Shown here: piece after piece, positions 23,181 to 54,030 of the stretch
Layout of the letters: every line of letters begins with the position of its first letter
Numbering within the stretch: the first letter of the stretch is position 1
Origin: a virus
DNA length: 64,000 nt
Virus record (IMG/VR): IMGVR_UViG_3300018059_000013
Strand: one strand, 5' to 3'
The notes under the pieces: generated by a model
Database searches by the model: none
What the model was told of the DNA's origin: nothing
The model's input: the letters and a program-made list of their open reading frames with translations, nothing else
Made by a program: the position numbers and the translations under genes

Positions 23181-23612
23181 TTTTTCACTCCCGCGCGTGT
23201 GCGTGTGCGCGGTTCGTGAGCTTTATCCGTGGGTTCGCTGGTTGGCTCCTGTCCTTCTTTGCCTCATGGATGAGGATTCCTGTAGCGGGATTTTTTTGCA
23301 TCATCTGAGTGCGTTCTGGCACGGTTCTGTTTATCAGATTTGTGTGGTGGTATATGTTCAACTTGTAAGAATCAGAAAAGGCTACGTTTATTTCTTGCAA
23401 GTGCAAACTGCAGATGCTTTCATCAAAATCGGGTTCACGATAGATCCATCCATCGGTTTAAAGATGAACCTCTCGGAGATTGCCCTTACGATGCTAAAAT
23501 CGCTCTGATGGGCCCTCGTGAACAATACGCCCACGGAGTCGTTCTTCATATGATTCCCCAACGAAAAACTCGTCTAAAACGACCTAAAGAGGATACATTC
23601 GTCTGACTTGGG
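23181..23612. other. ~430-bp structured non-coding region A (GC hairpin CCGCGCGTGTGCGTGTGCGCGG, then CGTGAGCT; terminal hairpin TTGTGCTCgaaaGAGCACAA)
   Basis: No convincing ORF on either strand; the hairpin-plus-CGTGAGCT element recurs at 53591..53622. Confidence 0.4.
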
Positions 23613-23816
23613 TCATTGTGCTCGAAAGAGCACAATTTCGAAGACGATCCTATCGATGGTCCCGTCTGGGAGAATGCAGTACCAAGATGGGTACAACGAA
23701 GCGTAGGAATACGTTTCGAAGAGCAGAATTAGGTGAGTTCCTGCGGCGCAGCGACCTCCGCCGTACGGAAAGATGTACTGACCCTCTGGGACCCGCAAAA
23801 TCTCACCGTTAGTCAT
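23613..23816 (-). CDS. Z-family small protein (67 aa)
   Basis: ILPDGTIDRIVFEIVLF matches LLPTGEIRKMIFEIVL in the 32044..32742 array. Confidence 0.4.
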   Translation of the reverse strand: MTNGEILRVPEGQYIFPYGGGRCAAGTHLILLFETYSYASLYPSWYCILPDGTIDRIVFEIVLFRAQ

Positions 23817-23899
23817 CGGCTTTTTGTAGCATGGATTTCCAGGAATCTAGTACGAAGTGTCCCGTCGTGCCTTTTAAGTGTGACAGACGGCCTCTTTGA

Positions 23900-24367
23900 T
23901 CAGAAAGCTTTCTTCTTCTTGGATTCACGCTCGAGCTTGGCGAGGTCGTCGGCCTGTTGACGCCTACGGATGATTCTCATCTTCGTATTGAGAATCTCGG
24001 TACTGCTGGGAGAACCGTCTGACAAAGTTTCGATGAACTCCCAGTGTGGGAGGCCGACGCCGTCGTGGGGCATGATCCCGTCCCGTTCACCGTCGCCGAA
24101 GATGATTCCGATCACGCGCCGAGGAGGGAGGTTCTTGCGAACCTCCGCATGCTGTGTGACGATGTCTTCATCGACATCCAGACCAAGGTCCTTGTTGGAC
24201 GTCAGGACGACCTGGGCGGGATATCCACCCTCCTCGACCGACTGCGTCGCCTCGAGCAAGTAGCTGATCTGCCCGACATTGTACGCGACAGATCGTTCGA
24301 GATCCTGCATATGAAACTTGGTCGACGTAGGCAAACAGTAGAACCCGTCGGTAACTTTACGAACCAT
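23900..24367 (-). CDS. P-family hypothetical protein, copy 1 (155 aa)
   Basis: About 60% identical over 110 aa to 55011..55502 (CLPTS.KFH.Q..ERS...ATQSVE.GGYP..VVLT...QHAEVRKNLPPR...GLPHWEFI). Own promoter instance and GAAGGGGG Shine-Dalgarno upstream. Confidence 0.55.
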   Translation of the reverse strand: MVRKVTDGFYCLPTSTKFHMQDLERSVAYNVGQISYLLEATQSVEEGGYPAQVVLTSNKDLGLDVDEDIVTQHAEVRKNLPPRRVIGIIFGDGERDGIMPHDGVGLPHWEFIETLSDGSPSSTEILNTKMRIIRRRQQADDLAKLERESKKKKAF

Positions 24368-24435
24368 GTCTATAACCCCCTTCGATCGTCGCCTGGCAGC
24401 GGAAGCAGATTATCTGACTCCCATTCCACTATTAG

Positions 24436-24468
24436 CTTAATCTTACCATACGACGAACGCAAATTCAT
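24436..24468 (-). promoter_or_regulatory. conserved promoter motif, instance 5 (GATGAATT...TGGTAAGAT)
   Basis: Reverse complement reads GATGAATTTGCGTTCGTCGTATGGTAAGATTAAGC. Confidence 0.5.
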
Positions 24469-24495
24469 CGGTGAGGGGCTTCTTCGATCGCGCAG

Positions 24496-24723
24496 CTATT
24501 CCGGACAATTCCAAGGACGATCCCGCCAGCACTTGTGCTCTCTAGCGTGTTCTCCTTGCGGAGTGATCGTATCGACCTCACCGCAGTGCTGAGGATTTTC
24601 ACGTTGACATTTGTCCAAGCGTTCGTACCCTCGATTGCAGGACCGAGCCGCAAAGATGAGGCAGACGACAGCTCCTATCAGGAGCGCGAGAGCAAAACAT
24701 CCGATCACTTTTTCGTCCTGCAT
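24496..24723 (-). CDS. small membrane-anchored Cys-containing protein (~75 aa)
   Basis: The internal ATG abuts the DHH gene stop; TM segment VIGCFALALLIGAVVCLIFAA. Confidence 0.35.
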   Translation of the reverse strand: MQDEKVIGCFALALLIGAVVCLIFAARSCNRGYERLDKCQRENPQHCGEVDTITPQGEHAREHKCWRDRPWNCPE

Positions 24724-24724
24724 A

Positions 24725-25840
24725 CTATCCTCGTCCTTCTTGCGTAGGATCCCATCCAGCATGGTCCTGCGGTTTGTGGCCGAGCTTGCTGCACGTTCCG
24801 CACGGATGAAGCTTGGCTGCGAAGGGATGCTTCTCCTCGTACGCATTCACGACGTTCTTGATGTAGGTGTACGGGTTGGCATCTTCCGGTTTGACAGATG
24901 CTCCGAATCCTGCGGCCTTGGTGTGACCGCCGCCACCGTACCACTTGGTGAACGACATGCAGTCGTAGAAGGTGTGGCTCCGAGTCGAGTGCAACATCTT
25001 GGGTTCAAGACCCGCTTCGGTCTTGTCGCACTTGTACTTGAAACCGATGATGAGGTCAGTGTCCTTGTCCATCGCCTCGGCAATGTCAGAAGATGCCCGT
25101 GTGCTGTTGAAGCAGGTCACCTTGGTCCCTCGATCGGAGACGAAATGGTACGCCTCGGCGAGCACGTACTGGGTGCTCTTCACCTGCTTCTTCATGAGAA
25201 TGCTACCGACGGGATGGAACTTCGAATCCCAGTGTTTCGAAATCTCCTCGAACTTGGTATCGAGCCAAAACTCTCTCGGCCAGAAATAGAGAATCTCTCC
25301 CTGAAGTGTGGATTCGTACCATTCAGGATTCGATCGCTGCCACGTGTCTCGGATGCCAGCCCGTTCCGCGAAGCGGGCGACGAACTGCTCGTGAGCGTCC
25401 CACATCTCCTCGTAGAGAGGATCGTAGTCCGCGCTCTCTTTCCAGTCCTTTCGACGAAGCGCCTGAAATGGTTTCCAGACGTGTCTATAAACGAGGGGTG
25501 CGCCGCTGATTCCCGGGTTGAGTTTCTCATCCCCGAACACGGCGAGCTCGCCGAACTTCTCGACGATGTCCTTAACACCCTTGTGATGGTCGAGAACAAT
25601 GGCTCCCATTTTCAAGAACTCTTCGTAGCGCTCCGAGGGAGGGACGATGTCGACGAACAACATGTACGGCCGAGCTTCGAGTTTGCCGTACGGCTCTGTA
25701 CCGTGCTGCGCAAAGATGATCTCCGCATCCGGTAGCACGTCATGTAACAGCATCGCTGCAGAAAGACCGTCGGTGCAGTTGTCGTGAGTCACTATCGTGG
25801 TCACAGCTTTCAACTTCTCGATGTCGATTTTTTTGTTCAT
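24725..25840 (-). CDS. DHH-DHHA1 phosphoesterase (NrnA/RecJ-like, 371 aa)
   Basis: DHH motifs HDNCTDGLSAA, LFVDIVPP, VLDHHKG and DHHA1 GGGGH; ATG confirmed at 25838-25840. Confidence 0.8.
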   Translation of the reverse strand: MNKKIDIEKLKAVTTIVTHDNCTDGLSAAMLLHDVLPDAEIIFAQHGTEPYGKLEARPYMLFVDIVPPSERYEEFLKMGAIVLDHHKGVKDIVEKFGELAVFGDEKLNPGISGAPLVYRHVWKPFQALRRKDWKESADYDPLYEEMWDAHEQFVARFAERAGIRDTWQRSNPEWYESTLQGEILYFWPREFWLDTKFEEISKHWDSKFHPVGSILMKKQVKSTQYVLAEAYHFVSDRGTKVTCFNSTRASSDIAEAMDKDTDLIIGFKYKCDKTEAGLEPKMLHSTRSHTFYDCMSFTKWYGGGGHTKAAGFGASVKPEDANPYTYIKNVVNAYEEKHPFAAKLHPCGTCSKLGHKPQDHAGWDPTQEGRG

Positions 25841-26028
25841 TCTAGCTGTTTCACCTCGGTGTCGAAAAGATGGAATTCTACTAAAACTCCGTCCAACACA
25901 CCGATGAATCTATGAAGATCATCTCCGATATCCAATGAGGATATCACGATGGTGATCGTTCCTTTTGGGACTAGGATCGTGTGTCCGAGGATGTAAGGTG
26001 GTGTCGAAGCTCCTACCTGCGTTTCCAT
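25837..26028 (-). CDS. hypothetical small protein (internal start)
   Basis: Weak. Confidence 0.25.
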   Translation of the reverse strand: METQVGASTPPYILGHTILVPKGTITIVISSLDIGDDLHRFIGVLDGVLVEFHLFDTEVKQLE

Positions 26029-26060
26029 TCTAACCAAAGAATGGAGCTGAAGCAACCTTT

Positions 26061-26279
26061 TCACGCGTCGATCTCTTCTCCTTGTACATCGATCACTCGA
26101 TGGACGGAGAGAAGCTTTCGCTTCGCCGCGGCCATGAACCATTGAGCGCTGTTAGGGTCACACTGGACGAGAACTGCGTTCAGCGCTAGAGCAGCTGCCT
26201 GGTCCTTATTCTCACCCAGAACACTGTACTTTCCCACGTACACACCATTGATCGTCGCGCAACAGAAAGAAGTCATCAT
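26061..26279 (-). CDS. hypothetical small protein
   Basis: Internal ATG; C-terminal part is protein-like. Confidence 0.3.
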   Translation of the reverse strand: MMTSFCCATINGVYVGKYSVLGENKDQAAALALNAVLVQCDPNSAQWFMAAAKRKLLSVHRVIDVQGEEIDA

Positions 26280-26539
26280 GTCGGCCTCCGTGGCGGGATT
26301 ATCCCCTTGTCGATCGCGTCCTGCAGACTCTTTTTCACGTACGCCCGAACGACACGGGCGTCGAGTTTCACCTTGTGAATGATCTTGATGTCCGTCAATA
26401 TCCATCCATCGAGGAACGCCACATCATCGTCGTCTATGAAGCGATCCTTCACAGTCAGTCTGACTATGTAGGAGTGTTCGCTAAACGCACGATCGACGTG
26501 CATGTCTAAAAGACGTTGTTCCTCGATGGTGGGGTCCAT
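26276..26539 (-). CDS. hypothetical small protein (~87 aa)
   Basis: ATG lies 4 nt after the stop of the upstream 55-aa gene. Confidence 0.4.
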   Translation of the reverse strand: MDPTIEEQRLLDMHVDRAFSEHSYIVRLTVKDRFIDDDDVAFLDGWILTDIKIIHKVKLDARVVRAYVKKSLQDAIDKGIIPPRRPT

Positions 26540-26543
26540 GGTT

Positions 26544-26711
26544 TTAGCGAGTGTCAACCTGGTACTTGTTGAGGACAGCCTCGAGCTCTTCCGAGAATGC
26601 GATGGCCTCATTAGAGGGACCGGTCGCGATCTCGATCGCCATCCACTTGTACGCCTTCAAGAGGCTCTCGCTGATGCGTTTCATTCGAAGGATAATCTTG
26701 GCTCGATCCAT
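26544..26711 (-). CDS. hypothetical 55-aa helical protein (below the ORF-track cutoff)
   Basis: MDRAKIILRMKRISESLLKAYKWMAIEIATGPSNEAIAFSEELEAVLNKYQVDTR, read directly from the sequence. Confidence 0.35.
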   Translation of the reverse strand: MDRAKIILRMKRISESLLKAYKWMAIEIATGPSNEAIAFSEELEAVLNKYQVDTR

Positions 26712-26718
26712 TTTGTGC

Positions 26719-26991
26719 TCACTTTCCGCAATACTCGAAGTGTGACTTCTTTTCGATTCCGTGACAGAAAATCACCCATCCGACCTTGTGATTCATGGTC
26801 ATGACGGGAACCCACCACCAACTATAGCGACCTTCGTCGCTTTTCTGGAGATATTCTTCTTCTGCCAGAACTCGGACCACCGCGTAGGCTACGAGATGCT
26901 CAACTACCCGCGACGATGATCCCGGAAGCTCGTGAACGACGAGACTGCCGCTTAAGACGGAAGAGGCCTTGACATAAGCTCCCAACTTCAT
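26719..26991 (-). CDS. hypothetical protein (90 aa)
   Basis: ORF only. Confidence 0.4.
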   Translation of the reverse strand: MKLGAYVKASSVLSGSLVVHELPGSSSRVVEHLVAYAVVRVLAEEEYLQKSDEGRYSWWWVPVMTMNHKVGWVIFCHGIEKKSHFEYCGK

Positions 26992-26997
26992 GAGTAG

Positions 26998-27432
26998 CTA
27001 CTCGTCGTTAGGGTCTTTGTTGGCAGTTTCTCGTACCATACGAGCGTTGACGTATGCCGCGTTGCAAGCATCGCAATTCGTGCGAGACCATCCATCATGA
27101 TGGATTTTTCCGGGAGCTCCACACGTTTCGCAGACCTTCGAGCAAGCTTCTTCAGCTTCGTCAATTGCCGACTCCATTTCGGATGTGGACCCGGCCATGT
27201 AGAACCGCAACCCGCCGAATTTCTCTTTGACCTGGGAAGCATAGTACGATCCCCGTAGATCTTCTGGCGCTTCTAAGATCAATTTTTCCAACTTCTCGGA
27301 GAGTTCTCGCACAATTGGTTCCCAACCGTCGCCGACGTCCAATCCGAACACCATGCAGGTTCCGCGCGTGCGTCGGTCTTTATAGAGGTTCGGAAAGTCC
27401 TTGCACAGAGCCTCATCGAGTTCGATTTTCAT
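26998..27432 (-). CDS. hypothetical protein with a C-terminal Cys cluster (144 aa)
   Basis: CETCGAPG...CDACN motifs. Confidence 0.5.
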   Translation of the reverse strand: MKIELDEALCKDFPNLYKDRRTRGTCMVFGLDVGDGWEPIVRELSEKLEKLILEAPEDLRGSYYASQVKEKFGGLRFYMAGSTSEMESAIDEAEEACSKVCETCGAPGKIHHDGWSRTNCDACNAAYVNARMVRETANKDPNDE

Positions 27433-27447
27433 ACCAAGATTCGGTTT

Positions 27448-27864
27448 TCACTTAAGGGAAGACCTCCCCTTCGATCCCGAAGTGGGGCCCGAGTGCAAGA
27501 AGCACCCGTTATTAGTAGCTGCTAGCCCGAGAAATGTTGCGAGCTCCGTGCACCGGGTTCTCATCGATCTATCGATCGAACGGGTGATGAGCTTCGGAGT
27601 TATTGACTTCGTGACTCCGTCCTGTATCAGGACAGCTTCACTCCAGATGACCATCCGCAATCCGAGCATCATCTGGATTCGCTTAGCGAACGACATACAT
27701 TCGTCGCTAGAGATGATCTCGTCAGAGTTAGATGTGAGCTTGTTGATTGTCGATGCAGCGATTCCCGACCTTGAAAAGAACCCTTTCATCGCCTCGAGCT
27801 CTTCCACCTTCAATTCGAGGGTTTCACTTCCATCGGGGGTGGCTCGCAGGAACATTCTACCCAT
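27448..27864 (-). CDS. hypothetical protein (~139 aa)
   Basis: ATG at 27864 is preceded by AGGAGG, downstream of promoter 27902..27934. The listed start at 27936 lies inside the promoter. Confidence 0.5.
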   Translation of the reverse strand: MGRMFLRATPDGSETLELKVEELEAMKGFFSRSGIAASTINKLTSNSDEIISSDECMSFAKRIQMMLGLRMVIWSEAVLIQDGVTKSITPKLITRSIDRSMRTRCTELATFLGLAATNNGCFLHSGPTSGSKGRSSLK

Positions 27865-27901
27865 GTTGACCTCCTGCCGGATCCTTTTTTCCGACTTACG
27901 T

Positions 27902-27934
27902 TTAATTGTATCACATGACCAATGTGGGTTCATC
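27902..27934 (-). promoter_or_regulatory. conserved promoter motif, instance 6 (GATGAACC...TGATACAAT)
   Basis: Reverse complement reads GATGAACCCACATTGGTCATGTGATACAATTAAA. Confidence 0.6.
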
Positions 27935-28271
27935 AATCCGTGGGAGAGATCGTCTTCATAACCTGCTTGAGTAGCGTCATGTCGTAAGCTTTCCGTGATT
28001 CGGGGTCCATCAAATCTTGAGGCGGCAGCTTGATGGCCGGAAGGGAGAACCCCAAATAGCTCGCAAGGGGCGAGAGCAGAAAGTCCATGCCGTATTCATC
28101 CACCGGATCCACTTGGAACCTTCCGCAGCTCGACCAGTACGGGTTGACGATCCACGATTCTTCGTATTTGAAACCCATACTTCGAATTTCTTCGAACAGA
28201 GAGTTGTTCTCATCGATTGGACCGTTGAACATCCGAGATTTGATCTGCTTCCGACTGAATGAAGTGATCAT
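27933..28271 (-). CDS. hypothetical protein (internal start, ~112 aa)
   Basis: Protein-like from MITSFSRK onward. Confidence 0.35.
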   Translation of the reverse strand: MITSFSRKQIKSRMFNGPIDENNSLFEEIRSMGFKYEESWIVNPYWSSCGRFQVDPVDEYGMDFLLSPLASYLGFSLPAIKLPPQDLMDPESRKAYDMTLLKQVMKTISPTD

Positions 28272-28543
28272 TTTCCTTTTGAGGCTCTTCGAGGAATCGT
28301 GAAAGACTTGTTGGGACGTTGGATCTGCGGAGGAACGGGGTCCGAAGCAGGTTGAACGATGACGAGCTTTTCCTGCAGGAGAGCGAATTCGTACGCTCTT
28401 GCGCTGGTGGGAAAAACCTTCGAACTGTGAAAGACGCTCTTCCAAGGAAACCATACGACCCTTGTCGGGCAGATGATCTCATCCGGCTGCATGGGAGCCG
28501 TGTTACACTCAAAGAACTTTTCGAGAGACTTTTCGAAGTTCAT
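28268..28543 (-). CDS. hypothetical protein (91 aa)
   Basis: ORF only. Confidence 0.3.
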   Translation of the reverse strand: MNFEKSLEKFFECNTAPMQPDEIICPTRVVWFPWKSVFHSSKVFPTSARAYEFALLQEKLVIVQPASDPVPPQIQRPNKSFTIPRRASKGK

Positions 28544-28773
28544 CCATCCTCCGAACCGACGAAGAATTCGACGAGCACACCGTCAGAATTGATCGTGTTG
28601 GTGAGATTACGAATGAAGAGATCGATGAGATCTCGTCTGGCAACATACGTGCTCGCGTTTATTGTTCCGACGTTGTACAGGCAACGAAGCACGTCGTGCT
28701 CGTGGAGTCCGATCTCCTTGCGAGACTTCATGGACAAGCTGTTGAGTCTGCATCGTTTCACGTCAGTGTTCAT
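28540..28773 (-). CDS. hypothetical small protein (internal start)
   Basis: Weak. Confidence 0.25.
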   Translation of the reverse strand: MNTDVKRCRLNSLSMKSRKEIGLHEHDVLRCLYNVGTINASTYVARRDLIDLFIRNLTNTINSDGVLVEFFVGSEDG

Positions 28774-29000
28774 GCGATGAGCGTGCATTCTTCGTCCATC
28801 ATCCGGTACGGTGTCCACAAAAATCGAGTTCCGAAGAAAATCACAACGGATCGATCGAGCTCGGTGGTGAAAGTCGATGTCATCTCGTAGTGAACGATCC
28901 GTGTGGCCACGATCAGAAAGCATTCTCCAGGAATGTGATCGAACTGAACGACGTCTCCCATGGAGCAATCGTAGAGACGTTTTCTAGAGAATTTCTCCAT
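28770..29000 (-). CDS. small-family protein (76 aa, MGDVVQF motif)
   Basis: GD(V)V motif shared with the small-protein family. Confidence 0.35.
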   Translation of the reverse strand: MEKFSRKRLYDCSMGDVVQFDHIPGECFLIVATRIVHYEMTSTFTTELDRSVVIFFGTRFLWTPYRMMDEECTLIA

Positions 29001-29259
29001 TTGCGTTCACATGGTACTCACACGCCAGTTCGATTCGAGTTTGCCCAGGAATGTGAACAATGTGCCAATTGTCGCTGTAGGCCCACTCTCTGTAGAAGCC
29101 CTTCAACGCAATGGTTCTCGGAGGAGTGAAGAACCCTTCGACGACGAGGACGATAGTTGGACCATCTCGAACAATGACGTCAAAGGGATACGTGATTTCG
29201 CGTGTGACGAGACGGTCCACGAACTTCATGATTCTGAACATCAGATTACAGTCCACCAC
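28984..29259 (-). CDS. hypothetical protein (91 aa)
   Basis: ORF only. Confidence 0.4.
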   Translation of the reverse strand: MVDCNLMFRIMKFVDRLVTREITYPFDVIVRDGPTIVLVVEGFFTPPRTIALKGFYREWAYSDNWHIVHIPGQTRIELACEYHVNANGEIL

Positions 29260-29419
29260 AAGTCGACCTTATACTGCATCAGATTACCTCTCCATGGAAT
29301 GACCCTTCCAACCCCATCCATGACGTCGACACCTTCCGGAAAGACGGACAGAACGACCACGATCACATCGACGAATCGATTGTGTCTTAGCACACTTCCG
29401 GAAGGGAGTTCGAAAAAGT

Positions 29420-29872
29420 TCAGTTCAGATTCCAGTCATCGTTGGGATCCTTCGATTCTTCTTTTTTCTTCGGGAGATCGAAGGGAGAGGGAGAAGCTCC
29501 GAGCGCGGACAGATTGCCGTTCTTGCGATCTTCTGCGCGCATGTCGACAGTCTTCAGAACGAGAATTGCACCGGCCTGATCTTCCTTGGACCATCCAGAA
29601 CGGGTGGAGATCCACTTTTCGAAGTCGATCTTTTTGCTCTGATCCGCGAACTTCACGGCGGCAATCGTCAGAATGACCCTTGAGGGAACGCCCAACAGAC
29701 CGAGGATCATGTACAAAGCGCTGAGCGCTTGACCCTGGGTAGTATCGGCGATGGAGTTGCTCCATTCCTTCGAGGGAGACAGAGAACGCTCACCTGAGGG
29801 GAGTTCAACTTCTTCGACATTCTCGACTCCGGGATAGGGAGTGAATTTAAGGTCTTCAAGCGGATCTTTCAT
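29420..29872 (-). CDS. hypothetical protein (150 aa)
   Basis: Protein-like with a central hydrophobic segment. Confidence 0.5.
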   Translation of the reverse strand: MKDPLEDLKFTPYPGVENVEEVELPSGERSLSPSKEWSNSIADTTQGQALSALYMILGLLGVPSRVILTIAAVKFADQSKKIDFEKWISTRSGWSKEDQAGAILVLKTVDMRAEDRKNGNLSALGASPSPFDLPKKKEESKDPNDDWNLN

Positions 29873-29908
29873 GATGGTCTCGATTGTTAAGGAGTAGGAA
29901 AAAAGAAC

Positions 29909-30141
29909 TCAGAACCAAACGTCGTACTGCCTGCTGTATGTCAGGGTCTTCGGCTTGACCTCGTACATGAGATCTTCGATCCCATCGAGATTCTTACGAA
30001 CCCATTCGTCAGCGTCACCTTCCGTGAAGAACTTATACGCAACGTTGGGGGCGTGCGGGTGACACACCTCTCTCCAAAGGTCGTTGCGAAGAATCGAAAT
30101 TGTGAAGCAATCCTGGCTAAGCAGCAGCAGTTCTTGGCGCA
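29909..30141 (-). CDS. hypothetical small protein (77 aa)
   Basis: GC3-rich codons; first gene after promoter 30202..30234. Confidence 0.45.
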
Positions 30142-30234: not shown

Positions 30235-30242
30235 CTACGGGT

Positions 30243-32822: not shown

Positions 32823-32833
32823 GTGAAGTTCAG

Positions 32834-32905
32834 CTGGTCGAGGCGGAATCGAACCACCGGCGCCCCTTTTCCGGGGCGTACTCGTGCCACTTGAGCTACC
32901 GACCA
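32834..32905 (-). tRNA. tRNA-like gene with a non-canonical anticodon arm (type undetermined)
   Basis: Good acceptor, D-arm (G18 G19) and T-arm (GGTGG-TTCGATT-CCGCC). The anticodon region ACGCCCCGGAAAAGGGGCGCC can only form a 6-nt (GGAAAA) or 8-nt (CGGAAAAG) loop, never 7. Confidence 0.5.
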
Positions 32906-38633: not shown

Positions 38634-38887
38634 TCTAGCTCCCCAAATCGGAATCTCAAGTTTGGGAGGGAAGAACGCACCGTTCGACCGACCCAGAGTT
38701 GAACGCCCGATTGCGTTCTTTTTAGCCCGGTGTTTCTCCGGGTATGCGTGCGCTAAGCGCTGTCTTTGTCCCTAGGCTTGCTGCTTGGCGGTGCTTCGGG
38801 ATCGATATCGTGACGCCGTCGAGGAAGGAAAATTTCAGCTCCCATAGAAGGACTTCTTCATGATGTTTCTCCTTTCTCAAAGATTCG

Positions 38888-38964
38888 CGGTTCATCCAAG
38901 ATTCGAACTTGGAACCGAACGGGTTCTAACACCCGAGCGCTCTACCAATTTGAGCTAATGAACC
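38888..38964 (-). tRNA. tRNA-like gene (77 nt) with an irregular anticodon arm, type undetermined
   Basis: Perfect acceptor GGTTCAT/ATGAACC, D-arm GCTC...GAGC, T-arm CCAAG-TTCGAAT-CTTGG. The anticodon region CGGGT-GTTAGA-ACCCG gives a 6-nt loop (or 8-nt with a 4-bp stem). Confidence 0.5.
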
Positions 38965-40436: not shown

Positions 40437-40472
40437 TTGTTAATTGTATCACACGAAGAAAATAGATTCATC
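40437..40472 (-). promoter_or_regulatory. conserved promoter motif, instance 8 (GATGAATC...TGATACAAT)
   Basis: Reverse complement reads GATGAATCTATTTTCTTCGTGTGATACAATTAACAAGG. Confidence 0.6.
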
Positions 40473-45426: not shown

Positions 45427-45432
45427 GTTATT

Positions 45433-47290: not shown

Positions 47291-47544
47291 GGATTCTTTT
47301 CTAGATAGAGCTCGTCGCGTCTCGACTGGATGTGCTCACGGAGAGGACCACCGGTCGTATGACCGTATAGGATCATCCAATCGTCGATCTTCTTGTAGTT
47401 GTTAGAACGCAGCGCTTCACGCAAATCATCGAACTTGCGATCGGTCTTGAGTTGATTCTTCTTGAAGCGGGACAGGAGGAAGTACCCTCCGAATCCTGTT
47501 CCTCCGAGGAGTGCCAGCAGAACGAGGAACTCTGCGAAGATCAT
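47287..47544 (-). CDS. small membrane protein (85 aa, N-terminal TM)
   Basis: FLVLLALLGGTGFGGYFLL. Confidence 0.4.
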   Translation of the reverse strand: MIFAEFLVLLALLGGTGFGGYFLLSRFKKNQLKTDRKFDDLREALRSNNYKKIDDWMILYGHTTGGPLREHIQSRRDELYLEKNP

Positions 47545-48467
47545 TTCTTGGGGGTGATCTGAAGGATGAAGTTGGGATTCTGCGGGACCATGACGGACCC
47601 ACCCTTCTCGGCGGCGTAGGCGTACACGTCGCGGACGTAGTATTCGGGATTGCGATGCAGCGCCGCCCCAATGATGTCGATCTTCTTGGCGGTGGCCTGC
47701 GCTTCGACGTCCTGCTTCACGATGTCGAGCTTGGCCGTTTCGATCTCGGCCTGCACCTTCTCGCGCTCGGCGATCGCCTTGTCTTTCAGGACGGCCTGGG
47801 TCGCCCGGTCGGTGTTGGCGTGGACCAGCTGCTCCGGAAAGCTGAGGTTAGAGAGATTGAGACCGTAGACGGTCACGAAGTTTCCCTCCACCTTTGCGAG
47901 TTGGTCGGTGAACTTCTTCTTGATCTGCTCGAAGATTTCATCTCGTCGTGCATTGACGTCATTTGCGATGACCGGAGACACTGCCTCGCGAACCGCCTCA
48001 CCGAGAGCGGGCCGGATGTAGGTGTTGTAGACCTGTCGACTCGTGATGGTGAGTTCGGGATGCGGCTCGATCGGGTCAGAGTTATCGTCCTTCGGAGCTT
48101 TGGGATCGACCGCGCGGGCGTTGCCGGGGGAGAGCGTGCTGAGGAGACCTTTAATGGCATCTTCGTTATCGCAGTTCGCGCTGAACCTGACGTAGATGTC
48201 GAGGTTGAACTGGACACTGTCTTTCGTCATCGCGTTGAGAGGTTCCTTGATGGTGCGCTGCCCGCAATCGACCATGCGAACTTCGGGGTAGATTGACGTG
48301 AAGTAGGTGCCGGGTCCGAGGATGGGACCCTCGAATCCCTTTCCGCCCGAGTAGAAAGCCAGCCAACCCGTCTTGTCGAACATTCGACCTTTGTGCGCCT
48401 GCGGCACGTCTTGGCTCGAACATCCGACTGCGAGCGCTGCGAAAGCGAGGATACCTAGTCTTCTCAT
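47541..48467 (-). CDS. SPFH/Band-7 (HflK/C, stomatin-like) domain lipoprotein
   Basis: Internal ATG at 48467 gives the lipoprotein signal MRRLGILAFAALAVGC (lipobox AVGC). SPFH core TKDSVQFNLDIYVRF...IRPALGEAVREAVS...FVTVYGLNLSNLSFP. The listed N-terminal extension is R-rich junk. Confidence 0.7.
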   Translation of the reverse strand: MRRLGILAFAALAVGCSSQDVPQAHKGRMFDKTGWLAFYSGGKGFEGPILGPGTYFTSIYPEVRMVDCGQRTIKEPLNAMTKDSVQFNLDIYVRFSANCDNEDAIKGLLSTLSPGNARAVDPKAPKDDNSDPIEPHPELTITSRQVYNTYIRPALGEAVREAVSPVIANDVNARRDEIFEQIKKKFTDQLAKVEGNFVTVYGLNLSNLSFPEQLVHANTDRATQAVLKDKAIAEREKVQAEIETAKLDIVKQDVEAQATAKKIDIIGAALHRNPEYYVRDVYAYAAEKGGSVMVPQNPNFILQITPKK

Positions 48468-48478
48468 TTGATCGACTC

Positions 48479-48700
48479 CTAACGTATGATCTGCCAACCA
48501 TATCCCGTCCAATGTCGGACAAGATAGTATTCGTTTTCTTCGATAGATCCATCGCCGTGGACGTAGATAATCCCCCATTCGAACGTTCCCACGACAAGCA
48601 GCCTCACTTTGTGGGCGGTCATATGATCGTTCTCTATAATGTCCCCGACTTCTACCTGAAAATCTACTGGGACGTCTGCGTGCGACCTGTACACACTCAT
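48479..48700 (-). CDS. small-family protein (73 aa, VGDIIE)
   Basis: ORF only. Confidence 0.35.
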   Translation of the reverse strand: MSVYRSHADVPVDFQVEVGDIIENDHMTAHKVRLLVVGTFEWGIIYVHGDGSIEENEYYLVRHWTGYGWQIIR

Positions 48701-48960
48701 GAAGATCTGTACGGACCGTTCTTAGGAAGAACTTTCCTAACGTCAAGGACGTCAAGCGCGCTCAGGCACAGCCTTTTAATCCCGGGTCGAAGATGGCTTC
48801 CGTAGACGTTGTCTCTCAGCTCGCTCGTATCGAGCGTGCCCCATACGAGCTTCATTGCTTCGAGGGGTTCGCGCTCCTCATCCATGATGTACTCTTCGAG
48901 AGTCTTCTCTAGGTACGCGATGTGCACCATCCTGATAGCACGATTCACTTCGTCCTCCAA
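48697..48960 (-). CDS. hypothetical protein (87 aa)
   Basis: ORF only. Confidence 0.4.
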   Translation of the reverse strand: MEDEVNRAIRMVHIAYLEKTLEEYIMDEEREPLEAMKLVWGTLDTSELRDNVYGSHLRPGIKRLCLSALDVLDVRKVLPKNGPYRSS

Positions 48961-48993
48961 ATATTCGAGGTCATCAGGTATGTTCGTCAGTGT

Positions 48994-49491
48994 TCAGTCG
49001 ATATCGTCGTCGTACGATCTTGGACTAGGACGCGGTTTCTTCATGATGAAACAGTATCCTCTGATTGTCTTTATCTTGCACCAGTCGTACGTTGCTACGC
49101 ACCCTGCGATAGCCAATAATGCGAGGATGACCTGCGTGCCGAGGATCGGCCTCCGGATGAGCAGGAAATCGAAGTCGTATATCACGGACACTCGATGCGA
49201 TTTGAGACCTTCTCCTCCGACGTAATGGATGAAGACGTCGTAGTGTTCCGAAGAACTTTGAAAGCTTTGTTCTTTGCCTGCGATGACGCGAGGGGTGCGA
49301 AATTTCTTCGTGTACCCGGTAACTACCCGTTTTTCGATTTGAAGTAATAGATCGGGCTGTTTCCGTGCCTCGTATTTGTAGATGAGCTTGCTGATCCAGC
49401 AGAGGTATTCTTTTCTGACAAGATCGAATTCGATGATCTGCCCGTTCTTGGGTCGAACCCAGCTCCAAATCTTGTCAGCGTCGAATTTCAT
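48994..49491 (-). CDS. hypothetical protein with a C-terminal TM segment (165 aa)
   Basis: ORF only. Confidence 0.45.
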   Translation of the reverse strand: MKFDADKIWSWVRPKNGQIIEFDLVRKEYLCWISKLIYKYEARKQPDLLLQIEKRVVTGYTKKFRTPRVIAGKEQSFQSSSEHYDVFIHYVGGEGLKSHRVSVIYDFDFLLIRRPILGTQVILALLAIAGCVATYDWCKIKTIRGYCFIMKKPRPSPRSYDDDID

Positions 49492-49525
49492 CTATCGAAC
49501 TTTCTGGCAGTTCTGAATGGACAAA

Positions 49526-49549
49526 GGGTTCGGGAGTACTCCCGAACCC
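49526..49549. terminator. perfect GC-rich hairpin GGGTTCGGGAGTACTCCCGAACCC, candidate terminator after gene 49571..50491
   Basis: 10-bp perfect stem 22 nt downstream of the stop; flanked by a T-rich run on the plus strand and a weak U-run (UUUGU) on the minus-strand transcript. Confidence 0.4.
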
Positions 49550-49570
49550 TTCCTTCCCATTTTGGATGAT

Positions 49571-50491
49571 CTAGACGAATCCCCATGAGATCCACGTCTT
49601 CGTGGATTCGTCGTAGTACGCGGTCTCTCCTGAGAAATCGACGTGGAACTTGTACTTGCCCTTTTGATCGGAACCGACTCCCTGGAGGAATTCGGGATCG
49701 CTCGGCAACGATACCATATACTCGGAGTCGATGTCTTCGACGAGGTTCTTCTCCGACTGTTCATCTGTGCACTCGGACTGCTCTTTCCAGTACTTCACAA
49801 GAGCCACGAATGCCTCGGGATCGAGCTTTCTGAATCCGGCGGGGCTCATGCGAGAGTGATGCCGCTCGGCGTATTGGTAGAACGGTGAGGACAGTTTCTT
49901 CACCAATTCGAGTCCGTCCGGAGACTTGAGAAAGCCGATGATGCCTTCACGAGCTACGGCCGCCGTGTAGTCGGGCCCGAGCGACAACATCGCTCGGGCC
50001 TCGGCATCGTCAACCTCTGGGTCTCCTCGACAATCTTCCCAACGAAATTCTGCCAGTATCGTCCTGATGAGACCTGCTCCCATGACCCTCAAGGACTCGA
50101 TCCCTGTGACACGGATGTCTTCCGGCATCGTCGACTTTTCGACGTATTTCTTGGTGGCAGGAACGCTCTCCATGATGCCATCGAGGTACGAATCTCGAAT
50201 GGTGAACTGCACGTAGATTTCGGGACCTTCTTCTCGGTCCGCGTCAGCATTCTCGATGGTCGCTCGAAGTTCGGGGGAGCAGAATTCGTACGTGCCCGCT
50301 CCCTTGAAGCCGGCGTCGACCAGAGCTTCCTGCAGCTTTTGAAAGAACGGAGCAAAGTACTCCATCGTCGGATACGGAGGATTGGGAACTGCGACCTTGC
50401 CGGTTTCGTCGGGGTCTTCGGAGTCGAGACCCTCCTCACCGAGATAGTGTTGGAAAGCGGCGATCGCTGGGAACTTGCTGTAGGAATTCAC
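49571..50491 (-). CDS. hypothetical protein (306 aa)
   Basis: Long, protein-like ORF. Confidence 0.5.
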   Translation of the reverse strand: MNSYSKFPAIAAFQHYLGEEGLDSEDPDETGKVAVPNPPYPTMEYFAPFFQKLQEALVDAGFKGAGTYEFCSPELRATIENADADREEGPEIYVQFTIRDSYLDGIMESVPATKKYVEKSTMPEDIRVTGIESLRVMGAGLIRTILAEFRWEDCRGDPEVDDAEARAMLSLGPDYTAAVAREGIIGFLKSPDGLELVKKLSSPFYQYAERHHSRMSPAGFRKLDPEAFVALVKYWKEQSECTDEQSEKNLVEDIDSEYMVSLPSDPEFLQGVGSDQKGKYKFHVDFSGETAYYDESTKTWISWGFV

Positions 50492-50685
50492 GACATCCTC
50501 CGCAGGATCTCTGTCTTGATGAGCGCATAGCGCTCTGTCGCCAGGCTGAGATCTGCCAGGTCCGTCTTGCCTTCGATCGTTCCCATCGTCGTCCCGAGCC
50601 TTGCGCCCTTCTGACGAATGGAGTTGATGCTTTCTTCGAAAACTTGCATCAGATCACCTATACTCAACTTCTTCAAATCTTCCAT
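50488..50685 (-). CDS. hypothetical small protein (65 aa)
   Basis: GGAGG Shine-Dalgarno 6 nt upstream of the ATG. Confidence 0.4.
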   Translation of the reverse strand: MEDLKKLSIGDLMQVFEESINSIRQKGARLGTTMGTIEGKTDLADLSLATERYALIKTEILRRMS

Positions 50686-50865
50686 CGCGATGACCTCCTC
50701 AGATCAATTTGATGATGTTTGGTTGCCCTACCAGCTGCATGGACCGTGGGTGTCGCTTATGAAGAACCAACGAATCCGATCGAAGATAACCTTCAGACAC
50801 TTCATGTGCTCTCTTTGATTCTCGTGGGGAAGTCCGCTTTCACGATACCATAAACCCCAACTTGG

Positions 50866-50898
50866 TTTATTGTACCATGGGTTGCATCACAGTTCATC
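50866..50898 (-). promoter_or_regulatory. conserved promoter motif, instance 9 (GATGAACT...TGGTACAAT)
   Basis: Reverse complement reads GATGAACTGTGATGCAACCCATGGTACAATAAACC. Confidence 0.55.
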
Positions 50899-50993
50899 AA
50901 ACAGAAAATGCATCTTCTTGATGGAGTCTCTCAAGGGAAGAACGATTCTCCACAGCATGATGATGTGAATTTTTCTGCTCCATGAGAGACGAG

Positions 50994-51308
50994 CTACGGT
51001 GATAGCACGAATGACTGCGCTGTTGTAGGGAGAGAACATCGAATCTCCTCAAGGATAAGATCGGATCTGTTGAAACAGATGCTGCACACGTTCCCACGAA
51101 GAAACACGAGGAACGACCATGTGTCTTCGAAGAGTTCTCTATCAGAGAGCTTTGCGTACGAGAACTCTTCGAAGACCAGCATGATCTCTCCCTTCTCTAG
51201 GGTGAGAGAGGGTTCATCTAGAAGAGAGCAATCGCACTTCAATGATCGGTGACAGGCCACCGTATGACGTTGTACGTCATGCAATTTCTTCCTGAAGGAG
51301 TAGATCAT
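50994..51308 (-). CDS. small-family protein (104 aa, LEKGEIMLV)
   Basis: ORF only. Confidence 0.35.
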   Translation of the reverse strand: MIYSFRKKLHDVQRHTVACHRSLKCDCSLLDEPSLTLEKGEIMLVFEEFSYAKLSDRELFEDTWSFLVFLRGNVCSICFNRSDLILEEIRCSLPTTAQSFVLSP

Positions 51309-51517
51309 AGCAGCTCCGAGTCGTTAGTCCAGGAAGCCCTGTCGACGAAACGTATGCTATGTCCGAACTTGTCTAACCAGATAGCATGGCCTCGTTCGTC
51401 CGGATCTGAAATGAGGAGGTAAATTGCGTTACCGGTAGAGCACGGTACCCTAATCACATCTCCCTTCTTCCAAGTTCCCTGCAACTTTCCCATGTTCGAC
51501 ATGTAGCCGTCTTTCAA
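51305..51517 (-). CDS. small-family protein (70 aa, KKGDVIRV)
   Basis: ORF only. Confidence 0.35.
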   Translation of the reverse strand: MKDGYMSNMGKLQGTWKKGDVIRVPCSTGNAIYLLISDPDERGHAIWLDKFGHSIRFVDRASWTNDSELL

Positions 51518-52011
51518 GATGCTTTCTTCGCTTCGACCACTTCTCTTTCCTTCACGATCAGGTAGAGGCTTCCCAGCTTTTCCTCGAGGAAACGAAGATG
51601 GAGCTTGGTCCGCATCAGGTCATCCTTCAGCTCGAGCATCTCGAGGGCTTCGATGAGATCTTCCTTCGACTCTGCTCTGATGACGGGTGGAGCGGACAGG
51701 TCGAACCCGTAGCACTGCTCCCTGGTTTCGTCCCACAAGGAGACGTAGCCACCCTCCTCATCGTAGTTGACGACAGTACCCAGGTGGAGCTCGGTCTTGC
51801 CGTTGAGAGTTCTTTCGAAGACGACCCTTCCTTTCATCTTAACAATGAACCGTCCCTCGAAGATAGCCGGAGGAAGAATGTCCATGTCGACCTTGACCTT
51901 CCTCTTGCGAGAGGTGAAGACCTTCTTCTTTTCCTTTGCTTTTCGCATCATGGGAACACTCTCATCGTTTCTTCGGTGAAGATAGTCTCTTGGGCTCTGG
52001 GGTGACGCCAT
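51514..52011 (-). CDS. hypothetical protein (165 aa)
   Basis: ORF only. Confidence 0.45.
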   Translation of the reverse strand: MASPQSPRDYLHRRNDESVPMMRKAKEKKKVFTSRKRKVKVDMDILPPAIFEGRFIVKMKGRVVFERTLNGKTELHLGTVVNYDEEGGYVSLWDETREQCYGFDLSAPPVIRAESKEDLIEALEMLELKDDLMRTKLHLRFLEEKLGSLYLIVKEREVVEAKKAS

Positions 52012-52222
52012 CCATCAGAAATGGAGAAGACATCTCGGTCTTCATTTGTTCGCAGGAAATTCTTGCGGCATCTCCCGCACCGCAGTAGCAATGATTAACG
52101 CAGCACACGTTGCAGTATCCGCTACTGCACGGACATCTCCATGCTCGGCAGACTTTACTTCTGCATACGGGTACGGGCGTCCACCAGAATCCGATGAAGA
52201 GGAAGACGAGAAGACGGATCAT
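51962..52222 (-). CDS. secreted Cys-rich small protein (signal peptide plus 12 Cys)
   Basis: MIRLLVFLFIGFWWTPVPVC then CRAWRCPCSSGYCNVCCVNHCYCG. Confidence 0.35.
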   Translation of the reverse strand: MIRLLVFLFIGFWWTPVPVCRSKVCRAWRCPCSSGYCNVCCVNHCYCGAGDAARISCEQMKTEMSSPFLMDGVTPEPKRLSSPKKR

Positions 52223-52425
52223 TTTTCTGTTTCGACCTCAGGATCATTTCGACGAAAAAGGTACGTTGCGATCCTGTTTCCGAGAATCGTACCGATGAAG
52301 ATGCTCCAGGGATGCGCCGGCGGCATGAAAAAATAGACGAGCGCGTACGCGACGAGAGCTGAACTCACCATCGATACGACGTCAAAAATGTTGACCTTGA
52401 GAAGAATCTTAAGTGTTCGGTTCAT
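52219..52425 (-). CDS. small membrane protein (internal start MNRTLKILL)
   Basis: TM helices. Confidence 0.35.
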   Translation of the reverse strand: MNRTLKILLKVNIFDVVSMVSSALVAYALVYFFMPPAHPWSIFIGTILGNRIATYLFRRNDPEVETEK

Positions 52426-52637
52426 TGTGCCTCTGCCGGTGCCATCTGTTGAATGATGAATTCCCACACGAGAAAAGTCGGAGACCCTCTCACACACCAC
52501 GACTTCGCAGCCTTGGCGAAGCGCCAGATCGAGTCTTTATCGTATCCCTTGGACGTGAGACCCTCAACCTCCATTTTCGCAAGCTCGATGATTTCGGGAG
52601 CGTACACTTTCTTTTCTTCGACGATCTTTGCTTTCAT
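52422..52637 (-). CDS. hypothetical small protein (71 aa)
   Basis: First gene after promoter 52667..52700. Confidence 0.4.
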   Translation of the reverse strand: MKAKIVEEKKVYAPEIIELAKMEVEGLTSKGYDKDSIWRFAKAAKSWCVRGSPTFLVWEFIIQQMAPAEAQ

Positions 52638-52666
52638 TTGAATCGCAAGCTACATGCTACCCATTT

Positions 52667-52700
52667 AAATTCTATCACATGGTCGATGCAGAGGTTCATC
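52667..52700 (-). promoter_or_regulatory. conserved promoter motif, instance 10 (GATGAACC...TGATAGAAT)
   Basis: Reverse complement reads GATGAACCTCTGCATCGACCATGTGATAGAATTTAAATG. Confidence 0.6.
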
Positions 52701-52828
52701 CTACGAGGATTCTACCTCCCGAGGCGCTTGCGCTCCGCCTTCTTCTTTTCGCTGTGCTTCTTGAGCATGCTGTAGATGAACGTACCGACCGAATATAGAA
52801 TGACGACAGTTTGCATTTCAATCTCCAA

Positions 52829-53035
52829 TCACAACATCACGTAACCTAATTTGAGCCAGTCTTTTCTTTGAAGCTCTTGAATGGATGTTCGATGAACGTT
52901 CGTTTGATTCAGGATCCGGCGCCAAACCCAACAAATTCCATTCTCTTCGATTCGAAGAATCAAATATACCGCGAGCATTTTTTTACTATCCTCGTCGTAC
53001 CAGGCGAATAGATCGCCTACTTCAATGTCAGACAA
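52829..53035 (-). CDS. small-family protein (68 aa, VGDLFAW)
   Basis: ORF only. Confidence 0.35.
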   Translation of the reverse strand: MSDIEVGDLFAWYDEDSKKMLAVYLILRIEENGICWVWRRILNQTNVHRTSIQELQRKDWLKLGYVML

Positions 53036-53216
53036 GGATGTAGTTCAAGTGGAACCAACTGCTCCGCAAGTAATAAGCTTCCTCAGTTGCTCTCGAAAGA
53101 TGTCCTAGCGACGTCATGAAGTAAACAGCTTTTTCGTCGACTGCCAATACCAGGAAGGAGATGAATGTACTGCGTCGGAGCACGAAAACGTCTCCGGGTT
53201 GCGTCCGATCTGTCAT
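53028..53216 (-). CDS. small-family protein (62 aa, PGDVFVL)
   Basis: ORF only. Confidence 0.35.
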   Translation of the reverse strand: MTDRTQPGDVFVLRRSTFISFLVLAVDEKAVYFMTSLGHLSRATEEAYYLRSSWFHLNYILV

Positions 53217-53446
53217 AGTCTATCTTCGATCTTCTGATATCCTCGTTTGAGCCAACCAGAATGCCACCTATACGTTTGGTCGAAGCATGTCATGTAGGTA
53301 ACGTTGTTTGCCAACACACGAACGATCAGAAAGTAGCAAGAGAGATGAGCACCCAAGCTGGGAGAGTGGAAGTAGTAAATGTCTCCCTCTCGGACCATCC
53401 TGTCCTTGATATTGCTTCCGATCTCAAAGTGATCCCACCACGGCAT
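53213..53446 (-). CDS. small-family protein (77 aa, EGDIYYF)
   Basis: AGGTGG Shine-Dalgarno; directly downstream of promoter 53461..53493. Confidence 0.4.
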   Translation of the reverse strand: MPWWDHFEIGSNIKDRMVREGDIYYFHSPSLGAHLSCYFLIVRVLANNVTYMTCFDQTYRWHSGWLKRGYQKIEDRL

Positions 53447-53460
53447 ATTCCACCCACCTT

Positions 53461-53493
53461 ATTATTGTACCACACGATTCACGTACGTTCATC
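53461..53493 (-). promoter_or_regulatory. conserved promoter motif, instance 11 (GATGAACG...TGGTACAAT)
   Basis: Reverse complement reads GATGAACGTACGTGAATCGTGTGGTACAATAATAAGG. Confidence 0.6.
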
Positions 53494-53495
53494 GA

Positions 53496-54030
53496 ATGGA
53501 ATCGCTCCAAAAAAGAGCGAGCAACTCACTGCTCGCATTTCTACACGTCAGATGCACTATTTTTCCTACATTTCCTTGCGAATGTACTACGCGCGCGCCT
53601 GTGTGCGCGCAAGGCGTGAGCTACAAAAGTAGCTCTTAGAGAGAATCCTCATCTAAGTTCCGAGAGCCTCATGGCGGGTCACGTGGTGATTGGATCTTAG
53701 GAAGAATGCATCCTGTTCCAGGGCGTCCTGATGAATTGACGCAATTTTCTCGGGATCGATAGGTTTTTGCAGAAAGAGATCGAGCATCAATGAGAAGTAC
53801 TTCTCATTGATGCTCAAGGGCCCTACCCAAGAGTTCTATTCAGACCTATTTCATCCTCTTGGCGAGAGAGGAGAGCTCACGATTCAGACGTTTCTGACAA
53901 CAGAAACACCCGGAGCCATCGAGTCCCGGACGTAGACAGTTCATCGAAACTGTCGCTCGACGAGTGAAGGAACTTCTGATTCCTTCCCATAGGAACATGA
54001 GAGTCTCTCTGAACGTTAGCTTTCCGAGCC
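53496..54030. other. ~530-bp highly structured non-coding region B
   Basis: Four hairpins plus a 30-nt perfect palindrome GCATCAATGAGAAGTACTTCTCATTGATGC at 53784..53813; the GC hairpin GCGCGCGCCTGTGTGCGCGC followed by CGTGAGCT recurs at 23190..23221. No convincing ORF. Confidence 0.4.

Follow-up and report, generated by a model that had tools for sequence, protein, structure and literature searches.

In the 64,000-nt stretch of viral DNA analysed here (the window; IMG/VR virus record IMGVR_UViG_3300018059_000013), the two largest gaps between genes, which we call regions A and B, share a short GC-rich hairpin that recurs elsewhere in the same genome and in a related one. A sequence-only reading had proposed that the two regions could be non-coding RNA (ncRNA) genes, replication origins, packaging sites or binding sites of a dimeric regulator; its observation is largely correct and its interpretation only partly right. 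Judged against relatives, A and B are not units. These gaps hold an insert that is unexplained and the remains of genes that are intact in those relatives, and most of their length is lineage-specific debris. A hairpin, terminators and a promoter are embedded in this debris, and the reading that we favour, as the likelier one, is that the hairpin acts in RNA as an intercistronic stem-loop.

Genome context and relatives

The window is the terminal 64 kb of contig CACVEL010000001.1 (350,418 bp; assembly GCA_902730045.1; record coordinate = window coordinate + 286,402), and the identical sequence is carried by further public assemblies. It is phage-like, with genes almost entirely on the minus strand, among them a VapE-type helicase/primase, an AAA ATPase, a DHH phosphoesterase, a PolX-type polymerase and a trypsin-like protease, together with scattered tRNAs and a very large number of small genes to which no function is assigned. 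Over the whole window the cumulative GC skew declines steadily. Both regions are set in a block of small minus-strand genes, the content of which is very variable among relatives.

A DNA search of the phage collection gave no match, and searches of IMG/VR with the flanking proteins found no relatives. Relatives were found by a protein search with the gene for 155 amino acids (aa) upstream of A, followed by look-up of the contigs encoding the matches. Loci L009, L018 and L057 belong to one 348.9-kb Logan contig (the related 349-kb genome), while L010–L012, L016 and L017 are groundwater contigs in which the 155-aa protein is 75% identical; L013 and L014 are further syntenic loci. L019, with ~74% DNA identity, is collinear with window 50–58 kb, and L056 is the same genome as the window, past its right end. 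A metagenome scan yielded one new orthologous locus only.

Gene remains in the two gaps

According to the deposited gene calls, gap A spans 23181–23899 (719 nt) and gap B spans 53447–54033 (587 nt). They had been described as the only long stretches free of open reading frames (ORFs); they are the two largest gaps within the annotated stretches examined, but both are longer than described and contain ORFs of 53–76 aa. Their description as structured holds modestly: the minus-strand fold z-scores (−3.2 for A and −4.6 for B) are better than those of shuffles and of ten coding controls of similar length (−1.13 ± 0.55). The positions of the features discussed below are collected in Table 1.

In region A, only 31 nt of the 3′ end remain of a 117-aa gene that is intact in L010–L012 and L016; its first ~290 nt are missing from the window, which has TAG at the relatives' TGG. 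The stump is followed by the ~550-nt insert, for which neither blastn nor tblastx gave a counterpart in any relative examined and the Rfam scan gave no match. Two unsupported ORFs with borderline codon scores lie in the insert (23613–23816 and 23388–23549); ORF a1 was rejected as a gene on account of its spurious matches, low-complexity artefacts of a tandem-repeat protein, and ORF a2 for want of a homologue. Searches of Pfam and PHROGs with flanking and internal ORFs gave nothing significant.

The remaining part of region A is the conserved leader of a 73-aa gene (22959–23180), and its similarity to L011 and L016 continues into the gene. On the minus strand it reads GAATCCTCAT (23270–23279), ~57–60 nt, the GC hairpin, the Shine-Dalgarno sequence GGGAG (23188–23192), 6–7 nt and ATG (23178–23180). 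The GAATCCTCAT of the leader is also found in L009, and the hairpin in both L009 and L013. This hairpin contains a perfectly alternating pyrimidine-purine tract of 20 nt (23192–23211), and its 3′ arm overlaps the first Gs of GGGAG.

In region B, window 54823–53958 matches L019 8485–9361 by blastn, and homology ends near 53958, within a 62-aa ORF of ambiguous codon score (−0.02). Since homology to the 73-aa gene of L019 ends there, this ORF is better read as a truncated or fused gene than as non-coding DNA. L019 has at this place ~1.1 kb, which comprises the remaining part of the 73-aa gene, an M10-peptidase-like gene of 191 aa and a receiver-domain gene of 131 aa; in their place the window has ~175 nt of unshared sequence ending in a palindrome. 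At the 3′ edge of the palindrome homology to the receiver gene resumes, and a C-terminal stump of that gene follows (window LDLFLQKPIDPEK... vs L019 FDLVLTKPIDPRR...). A second, probable stump is the 3′ end of a small zinc-finger ORF; its L019 counterpart (~10542–10698) was read from frame translations, the deposit having no call there.

Beyond the stumps, a block of ~180 nt (53616–53438) is 84% identical to L019, compared with ~74% for the flanking genes. The GC hairpin comes first in it, then a conserved spacer and an intrinsic terminator, and after these the promoter TGGTACAAT, a Shine-Dalgarno sequence and the ATG of a 77-aa gene. The hairpin forms the 5′ edge of the block, and in L019 its stem is identical while the loop ACAC is changed to ACGU.

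A recurring family of GC hairpins

The hairpins that had been reported in both regions, each followed closely by CGTGAGCT, are present (CCGCGC/GCGCGG in A; GCGCGC-CTGTGT-GCGCGC at 53593–53610 in B, extendable as in Table 1). They are the sole (CG)n-type pure-GC hairpins with a stem of at least 6 bp in the 64 kb. The longest alternating pyrimidine-purine run of the window (20 nt) is the one in A, and B has two abutting runs of 11 and 12 nt. Outside the hairpin, sharing between the regions is not above chance (gapped local alignment score 24, vs 21.5 ± 2.4 for shuffles), so they are not copies of one long element. The 10-mer GAATCCTCAT, found in both regions, was treated as a chance match, its B copy being in the opposite orientation and in a stretch that is unconserved in L019.

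A profile search found 12 copies of the hairpin, a stem-loop of ~20–24 nt with alternating CG/CA, at about 6–7 independent loci; all are intergenic, all lie on the gene strand and all fold (−9 to −16 kcal/mol). Orthologous hairpins are found upstream of the 73-aa gene in L009, L011, L013 and L016, the 73-aa proteins of which are 40–53% identical to that of the window. Copies of the region-B type are found in L019 and in L018 (12843–12879), and the core of the latter, CGCGCACACGCACATGCGCGCG, is almost the region-A sequence, which links the two types. Among the extra copies, L056 9383–9420 belongs to the window's own genome, ~1.9 kb beyond its right end. In total there are three copies in ~75 kb of this genome and five in ~57 kb of the related 349-kb genome. 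The earlier reading was to be refuted if, among other things, the shared motif did not recur elsewhere in the genome; with these further copies, and with conservation at orthologous sites despite diverged flanking proteins, the hairpin does recur and is a real element. Because each genome has several of them, which lie between genes and can fold without exception, it has the character of a dispersed intergenic repeat of the repetitive extragenic palindrome (REP) kind.

The companion sequence CGTGAGCT fared differently. It occurs five times in the window, vs 2.6 expected, which is chance level for a motif said to be shared, and relatives have unrelated sequence in its place; only TCACG recurs, in three of the nine aligned copies. 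The B copy overlaps a local hairpin, GAGCTAC-AAAA-GTAGCTC (53617–53634). We take CGTGAGCT to be a coincidence within this genome, part of which (TCACG) would simply continue the alternating tract.

The seven pairs of the stem are nearly invariant, and a U·G/C-G alternation between L011 and L016 keeps the pair; no compensatory double change was found among the aligned copies. Loop size ranges from 6 to 10 nt. The distance to the preceding stop codon ranges from an overlap or 3 nt to 286 nt, and that to the following start codon from 10 to 157 nt. In copies of the region-A type the 3′ arm pairs with the first Gs of the Shine-Dalgarno sequence, and copies of the region-B type share a downstream box, TAGTAC..TT..CAAGG.AAATGTA..AAAAATAG. 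With perfect CG-rich pyrimidine-purine alternation over 20–24 nt in seven of nine copies, where ~12 bp are called for, the tract is of the Z-DNA-forming type by sequence.

Single occurrences of the pattern CGCGCACAYGCRCAYGCGCG were found in 36 IMG/VR contigs that are unrelated and in no fewer than 120 contigs of bacteria, mostly GC-rich, which shows that such alternating tracts arise sporadically elsewhere. The IMG/VR contigs include phages of GC as low as 0.37. In viruses the tracts tend to avoid long open frames, the stop-free length that covers them having a median percentile of 0.23; they stand just before a ribosome-binding site in L030, L036 and L046, and just after a TATAAT box in L049.

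Several other identities were considered for the hairpin and rejected. It does not encode the C-terminus of a zinc-finger gene (…RTHARA*): the copy at L018 4603 is the only one inside a called ORF, and elsewhere the frame is broken or a stop precedes. The one IMG/VR match to the pattern of hairpin plus CGTGAGCT lies within a gene of a high-GC phage that is unrelated, and is due to chance. A CRISPR-like repeat is excluded because no array was found in the window, and matches are single per locus among the viral and bacterial matches listed. Nor is there a sign of a host REP family, with single matches per locus among the bacterial matches listed. A literature search for comparable phage elements found nothing useful.

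Promoters and terminators around the hairpins

The window has 10 copies of the motif TGNTAYAAT, vs 1.2 expected; every one is on the minus strand, and one of them lies in B and none in A. Four sites were checked against the gene calls (55580, 53472, 27913 and 22199), and all lie 18–70 nt upstream of a gene start. It is the host-type promoter of this phage group. The B copy, TGGTACAAT, lies 18 nt before the ATG of the 77-aa gene and has the form of a sigma-70 extended −10 promoter.

Neither this promoter nor a minus-strand terminator was found in A, and the nearest upstream TGNTAYAAT is at 27913; because both are absent, A would be read through as a long internal spacer of a polycistronic mRNA. 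In B, the element at 53536–53509 has the stem and T-run of an intrinsic terminator, both of which are kept in L019 while the loop changes from GTGAGT to ATTCAC. The two best minus-strand terminator scores in 14 kb, those of the palindrome and of 53536–53509, both fall in B. Because these scores and a TGNTAYAAT copy come together there, B would be the 3′ end of one transcription unit and the promoter region of the next.

Function of the hairpin

We propose that the GC hairpin would work at the RNA level, where it would be a stem-loop between cistrons and a signal for processing or stability. This reading is preferred because the copies are strictly co-oriented with transcription, tolerate different loop sizes and are placed between genes; loops of 6–10 nt suit a stem-loop better than a fixed dimer site. 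Copy A may in addition be a translational brake that partly occludes the ribosome-binding site, because its 3′ arm pairs with the first Gs of GGGAG.

Several points weigh against this account. Placement relative to genes varies and dictates no single role. The stems are near-invariant, with no true compensatory change, and (CG)n ends such as theirs are bound to be self-complementary. Seven of the nine aligned copies (12 are known) are strictly alternating in purine and pyrimidine over 20–24 nt, and the loop is fairly conserved; a plain RNA stem-loop does not need the alternation, which would agree just as well with a property of the DNA, such as Z-DNA. Both the operon structure and the role in RNA are inferred. 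As for the debris, the comparison base is one to three relatives per locus, deletion in the window as opposed to insertion in the relative is judged from the stumps, and the ~550-nt insert of A is unusually structured (z about −3), which the account leaves unexplained.

The conserved alternation keeps alive the main rival, which we consider unlikely, namely that the hairpin works at the DNA level, as a supercoiling-sensitive Z-DNA or cruciform element or as a site for a phage protein, promoter or activator marking the starts of small-gene cassettes. Differences among the copies are transitions or 2-nt shifts that preserve alternation, the loop bases ACACGCAC are conserved without being needed by a plain stem-loop, copies of the region-B type carry the conserved downstream box GAAATGTA..AAAAATAG, and in B conservation with L019 starts exactly at the element, as expected of a cassette head. 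However, all copies are co-oriented with transcription, whereas Z-DNA and cruciforms are strand-symmetric, and both region-B copies (window and L019) break the alternation mid-way. The inverted arms are 6, 8 or 10 nt apart, a variation that ill suits a rigid dimeric binder. A clear promoter type, TGNTAYAAT, already exists in the phage group, and copy A ends 11 nt before a start codon, with no room for a conventional promoter and leader.

A bolder reading is rather improbable as a whole: the hairpin would be a dedicated expression signal of these very large phages, read by a phage-encoded factor and dividing long transcripts of small accessory genes into units under separate control, and the insert of A would independently be a lineage-specific ncRNA. 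Conceivable factors are an endoribonuclease, a regulator of translation that binds RNA, and a protein sensing a Z-form or cruciform structure.

Stable RNA, operator and origin as alternatives

That one or both regions encode a new stable ncRNA, either the ~550-nt insert of A or a B RNA of ~75–110 nt spanning the GC hairpin through the terminator at 53509, is improbable. Structure speaks for it, with fold z-scores of −2.96 for the A insert and −3.2 for B 53447–53781, vs −1.1 ± 0.55 for the coding controls, and so does the B block, which is better conserved than the neighbouring genes and in which ~55 nt of spacer separate a stem-loop at the 5′ end from an intrinsic terminator. In the Rfam scan (Rfam 15), however, only three tRNAs passed in the window, and at permissive thresholds A and B yielded nothing beyond chance-level matches, with bit scores far short of the gathering scores. 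Lacking a homologue in every relative, the A insert cannot be a conserved RNA gene of the group; no TGNTAYAAT promoter lies upstream of either candidate, conservation stops upstream of hairpin B, and the same module of hairpin and spacer occurs in L018 and L057 without a terminator after it.

The palindrome of region B had been given as 30 nt; it is perfect, as claimed, and extends to 34 nt. It forms a perfect stem of 17 bp, its tail TCTCTTTCTG passes a simple terminator scan with an interrupted U-tract, and it has no counterpart in L019, the sole relative covering the site. It is probably a second intrinsic terminator of B. Another perfect palindrome, AAGGGTTCGGGAGTACTCCCGAACCCTT (28 nt; 49524–49551), begins 19 nt past the stop codon of a gene for 306 aa, and UUUGU comes after it. 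The two share an AGTACT centre and are the only long GTAC-centred palindromes in the window and relatives; we read both as putative terminators or 3′-end hairpins, which leaves the shared centre unexplained.

A role of the region-B palindrome as the operator of a dimeric regulator, or as another DNA site recognised by a protein, in place of a rearrangement by-product or terminator, is very improbable. A perfect palindrome of 17 + 17 nt is far beyond chance and the second palindrome has the same centre; but the half-site, for which a search elsewhere had been suggested, has no second copy in the 64-kb window or in ~110 kb of relatives, and the palindrome itself is absent from L019. It stands among gene stumps, ~310 nt upstream of the nearest promoter and not over one, and the position of its partner shortly after a stop codon is terminator-like.

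Finally, a replication origin or packaging (pac/cos) site in A or B is extremely improbable. Both regions are long, hairpin-rich and intergenic, and two Logan assemblies (L007 and L008) start inside the palindrome, at window 53811; three others, including MEGAHIT and NCBI contigs, read straight through it, which rejects a physical end, and a break at a 34-nt palindrome would be expected from, and is probably an effect of, a de Bruijn graph with k=31. Across A and B the skew declines monotonically without turning, iterons, direct repeats and AT-rich stretches are absent (GC not below 0.46 across B; 0.48 on average in A), and apart from the short elements the content is unconserved in relatives. 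An alternative genetic code hiding a gene was also rejected, all six frames of A and B having mixed stop codons.

Features and neighbouring genes

Table 1. Features of regions A and B, further hairpin copies and promoter motifs (window coordinates unless a locus is named)
Feature	Position	Strand	Remarks
Stump of 117-aa gene (31 nt of 3′ end)	23833..23863	-	90% identity to L010/L011/L012/L016 over 31 nt
Lineage-specific insert, ~550 nt	23283..23832	-	GC 0.47
Conserved leader of 73-aa gene	23181..23282	-	74–75% identity to L011/L016
GC hairpin, copy A	23191..23212	-	stem CCGCGC/GCGCGG, loop ACACGCACAC; fold −11.5 kcal/mol
CGTGAGCT, copy A	23215..23222	+	unconserved in relatives
62-aa ORF	53846..54034	-	start overlaps stop of upstream 164-aa gene (TGATG, as in L019); N-terminal half homologous to L019 73-aa gene
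Perfect 34-nt palindrome GAGCATCAATGAGAAGTACTTCTCATTGATGCTC	53782..53815	.	minus-strand U-rich tail UCUCUUUCU; terminator-like
C-terminal stump of receiver-domain (response-regulator-like) gene	53653..53817	-	codon score 0.20, gene-like
3′-end stump of small C2H2-type zinc-finger ORF	53623..53679	-	probable; weak, short similarity to L019
GC hairpin, copy B	53590..53616	-	CGC-CUU-GCGCGC-ACACAG-GCGCGC-GCG; fold −16 kcal/mol; nhmmer match
CGTGAGCT, copy B	53615..53622	+	unconserved in L019 or L018
Conserved spacer after hairpin B, TAGTACATTCGCAAGGAAATGTAGGAAAAATAGTGCA	53550..53589	-	recurs with the hairpin at other loci
Intrinsic terminator GCGAGCA-GTGAG-TTGCTCGC then TCTTTTTT	53509..53536	-	8-bp stem, 5 GC pairs, T-run
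Extended −10 promoter TGGTACAAT	53464..53472	-	for 77-aa gene (53213–53446); followed by Shine-Dalgarno GGTGGGTGG and ATG; conserved in L019
Extra hairpin copies	L018 4594–4631; L056 9383–9420; L057 14936–14975; L057 13684–13719 (weaker match)	gene strand	profile search
TGNTAYAAT sites 1–5	4349–4357, 13727–13735, 17617–17625, 22191–22199, 27905–27913	-	motif count
TGNTAYAAT sites 6–10	40443–40451, 50869–50877, 53464–53472, 55572–55580, 59316–59324	-	motif count

Upstream of region B, ~480 nt of the window (54529–55010) have no minus-strand gene call, with only an opposite-strand ORF called, and are homologous to L019 DNA that carries genes of 62 and 96 aa; the 164-aa gene of the window (54034–54528) matches the 96-aa L019 protein over only 56% of its length. 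These observations suggest more gene fusion or decay at 54034–55010. Downstream, the genes of 77, 62 and 68 aa (52829–53446) and an uncalled ORF at L018 12925–13195, after the hairpin copy there, resemble one small-protein family by eye (GD.F ... W ... GY), and the 600 nt of L019 equivalent to 52829–53446 were left uncalled by its gene caller. In L018, a gap of 703 nt without a called gene (8493–9195) follows the equivalent of 55011–55502; it contains a terminator-like hairpin and two long inverted repeats (arms of ~20 bp, by reading) and has no sequence resemblance to B.

The 155-aa protein belongs to a family of ~155–170 aa and unknown function, several copies of which are found per genome in this phage group. 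Members include window 23900–24367 and 55011–55502 as well as P0012, P0015 and P0020–P0022, and the family motifs are FCLPTS..KFH, TQHAEVRKNLPPR, GLPHWE and a lysine-rich tail. The copy at 55011–55502 has a GC of 0.64–0.69, vs ~0.52 for the window. ARAGORN reported two tRNA-like genes on the minus strand (32833–32905 and 38887–38964) with aberrant two-base anticodon loops, which the Rfam tRNA model did not report.

The NCBI contig ends 16 nt after the window. The ENA assembly L056 (1–11322) extends 11.3 kb past this end, and a 322.7-kb ENA contig ends at nearly the same point; because one independent assembly reads past the end and another stops almost there, the contig probably stops at a boundary of the assembly or of a repeat, as opposed to a simple physical terminus.

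Comparison with known systems

For annotation, the two regions illustrate that long, hairpin-rich stretches without ORFs in very large phages can be mostly gene-decay debris and ordinary signals, and comparison with relatives is needed before such a stretch is annotated as an RNA gene or an origin. The ten strand-consistent TGNTAYAAT sites provide a ready promoter map of the window. The hairpin family is worth keeping, being conserved beside proteins that have diverged to 40–50% identity, strand-oriented and present in at least two genomes of ~350 kb. If it is indeed a processing, stability or translational signal, it would offer a handle on the control of hundreds of tiny phage genes of unknown function, and the element is short enough for a direct test in reporter constructs.

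The signals beside the hairpin have familiar counterparts. TGGTACAAT fits the sigma-70 extended −10 consensus TGnTAtAAT as a member of a strand-biased set of 10. The element at 53536–53509 resembles Rho-independent terminators, with a GC stem followed by a T-run, a conserved stem and a variable loop, and shows nothing unusual, whereas the palindrome differs from them in its over-long perfect stem and only moderate U-tract.

Among repeats with hairpins, those of the CRISPR type, including solitary phage units, are similar as GC-rich hairpin repeats of ~25–30 nt in the intergenic DNA of a large phage, but the present family has no regular spacing or array and only a single match per locus among the bacterial matches listed. 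Z-DNA-forming (CG)n/(CA)n tracts share the strict CG-rich pyrimidine-purine alternation over 20–24 bp; here, in contrast, there is a bias of strand orientation and two copies break the alternation.

Hairpins for the processing or stability of phage mRNAs are found between cistrons, for example the RNase III sites of T7, which are longer, bulged stems, and 5′ stabiliser stem-loops. The likeness lies in a stable stem-loop without a U-tract between cistrons, with copy A directly 5′ of the ribosome-binding site; unlike those hairpins, the ones described here are known from sequence, and their loop and purine-pyrimidine alternation are conserved, neither of which is needed there. Bacterial repeats of the REP and bacterial interspersed mosaic element (BIME) type are also short, GC-rich imperfect palindromes with many copies per genome, located between genes within operons or at their ends, and in RNA they can form stem-loops with an effect on the stability of the mRNA. 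The present family differs in belonging to a phage group and not to a bacterial chromosome, in the co-orientation of all copies with transcription and in its alternating CG/CA tract; no associated transposase was seen, and there was no multi-copy bacterial genome among the first 120 pattern matches listed.

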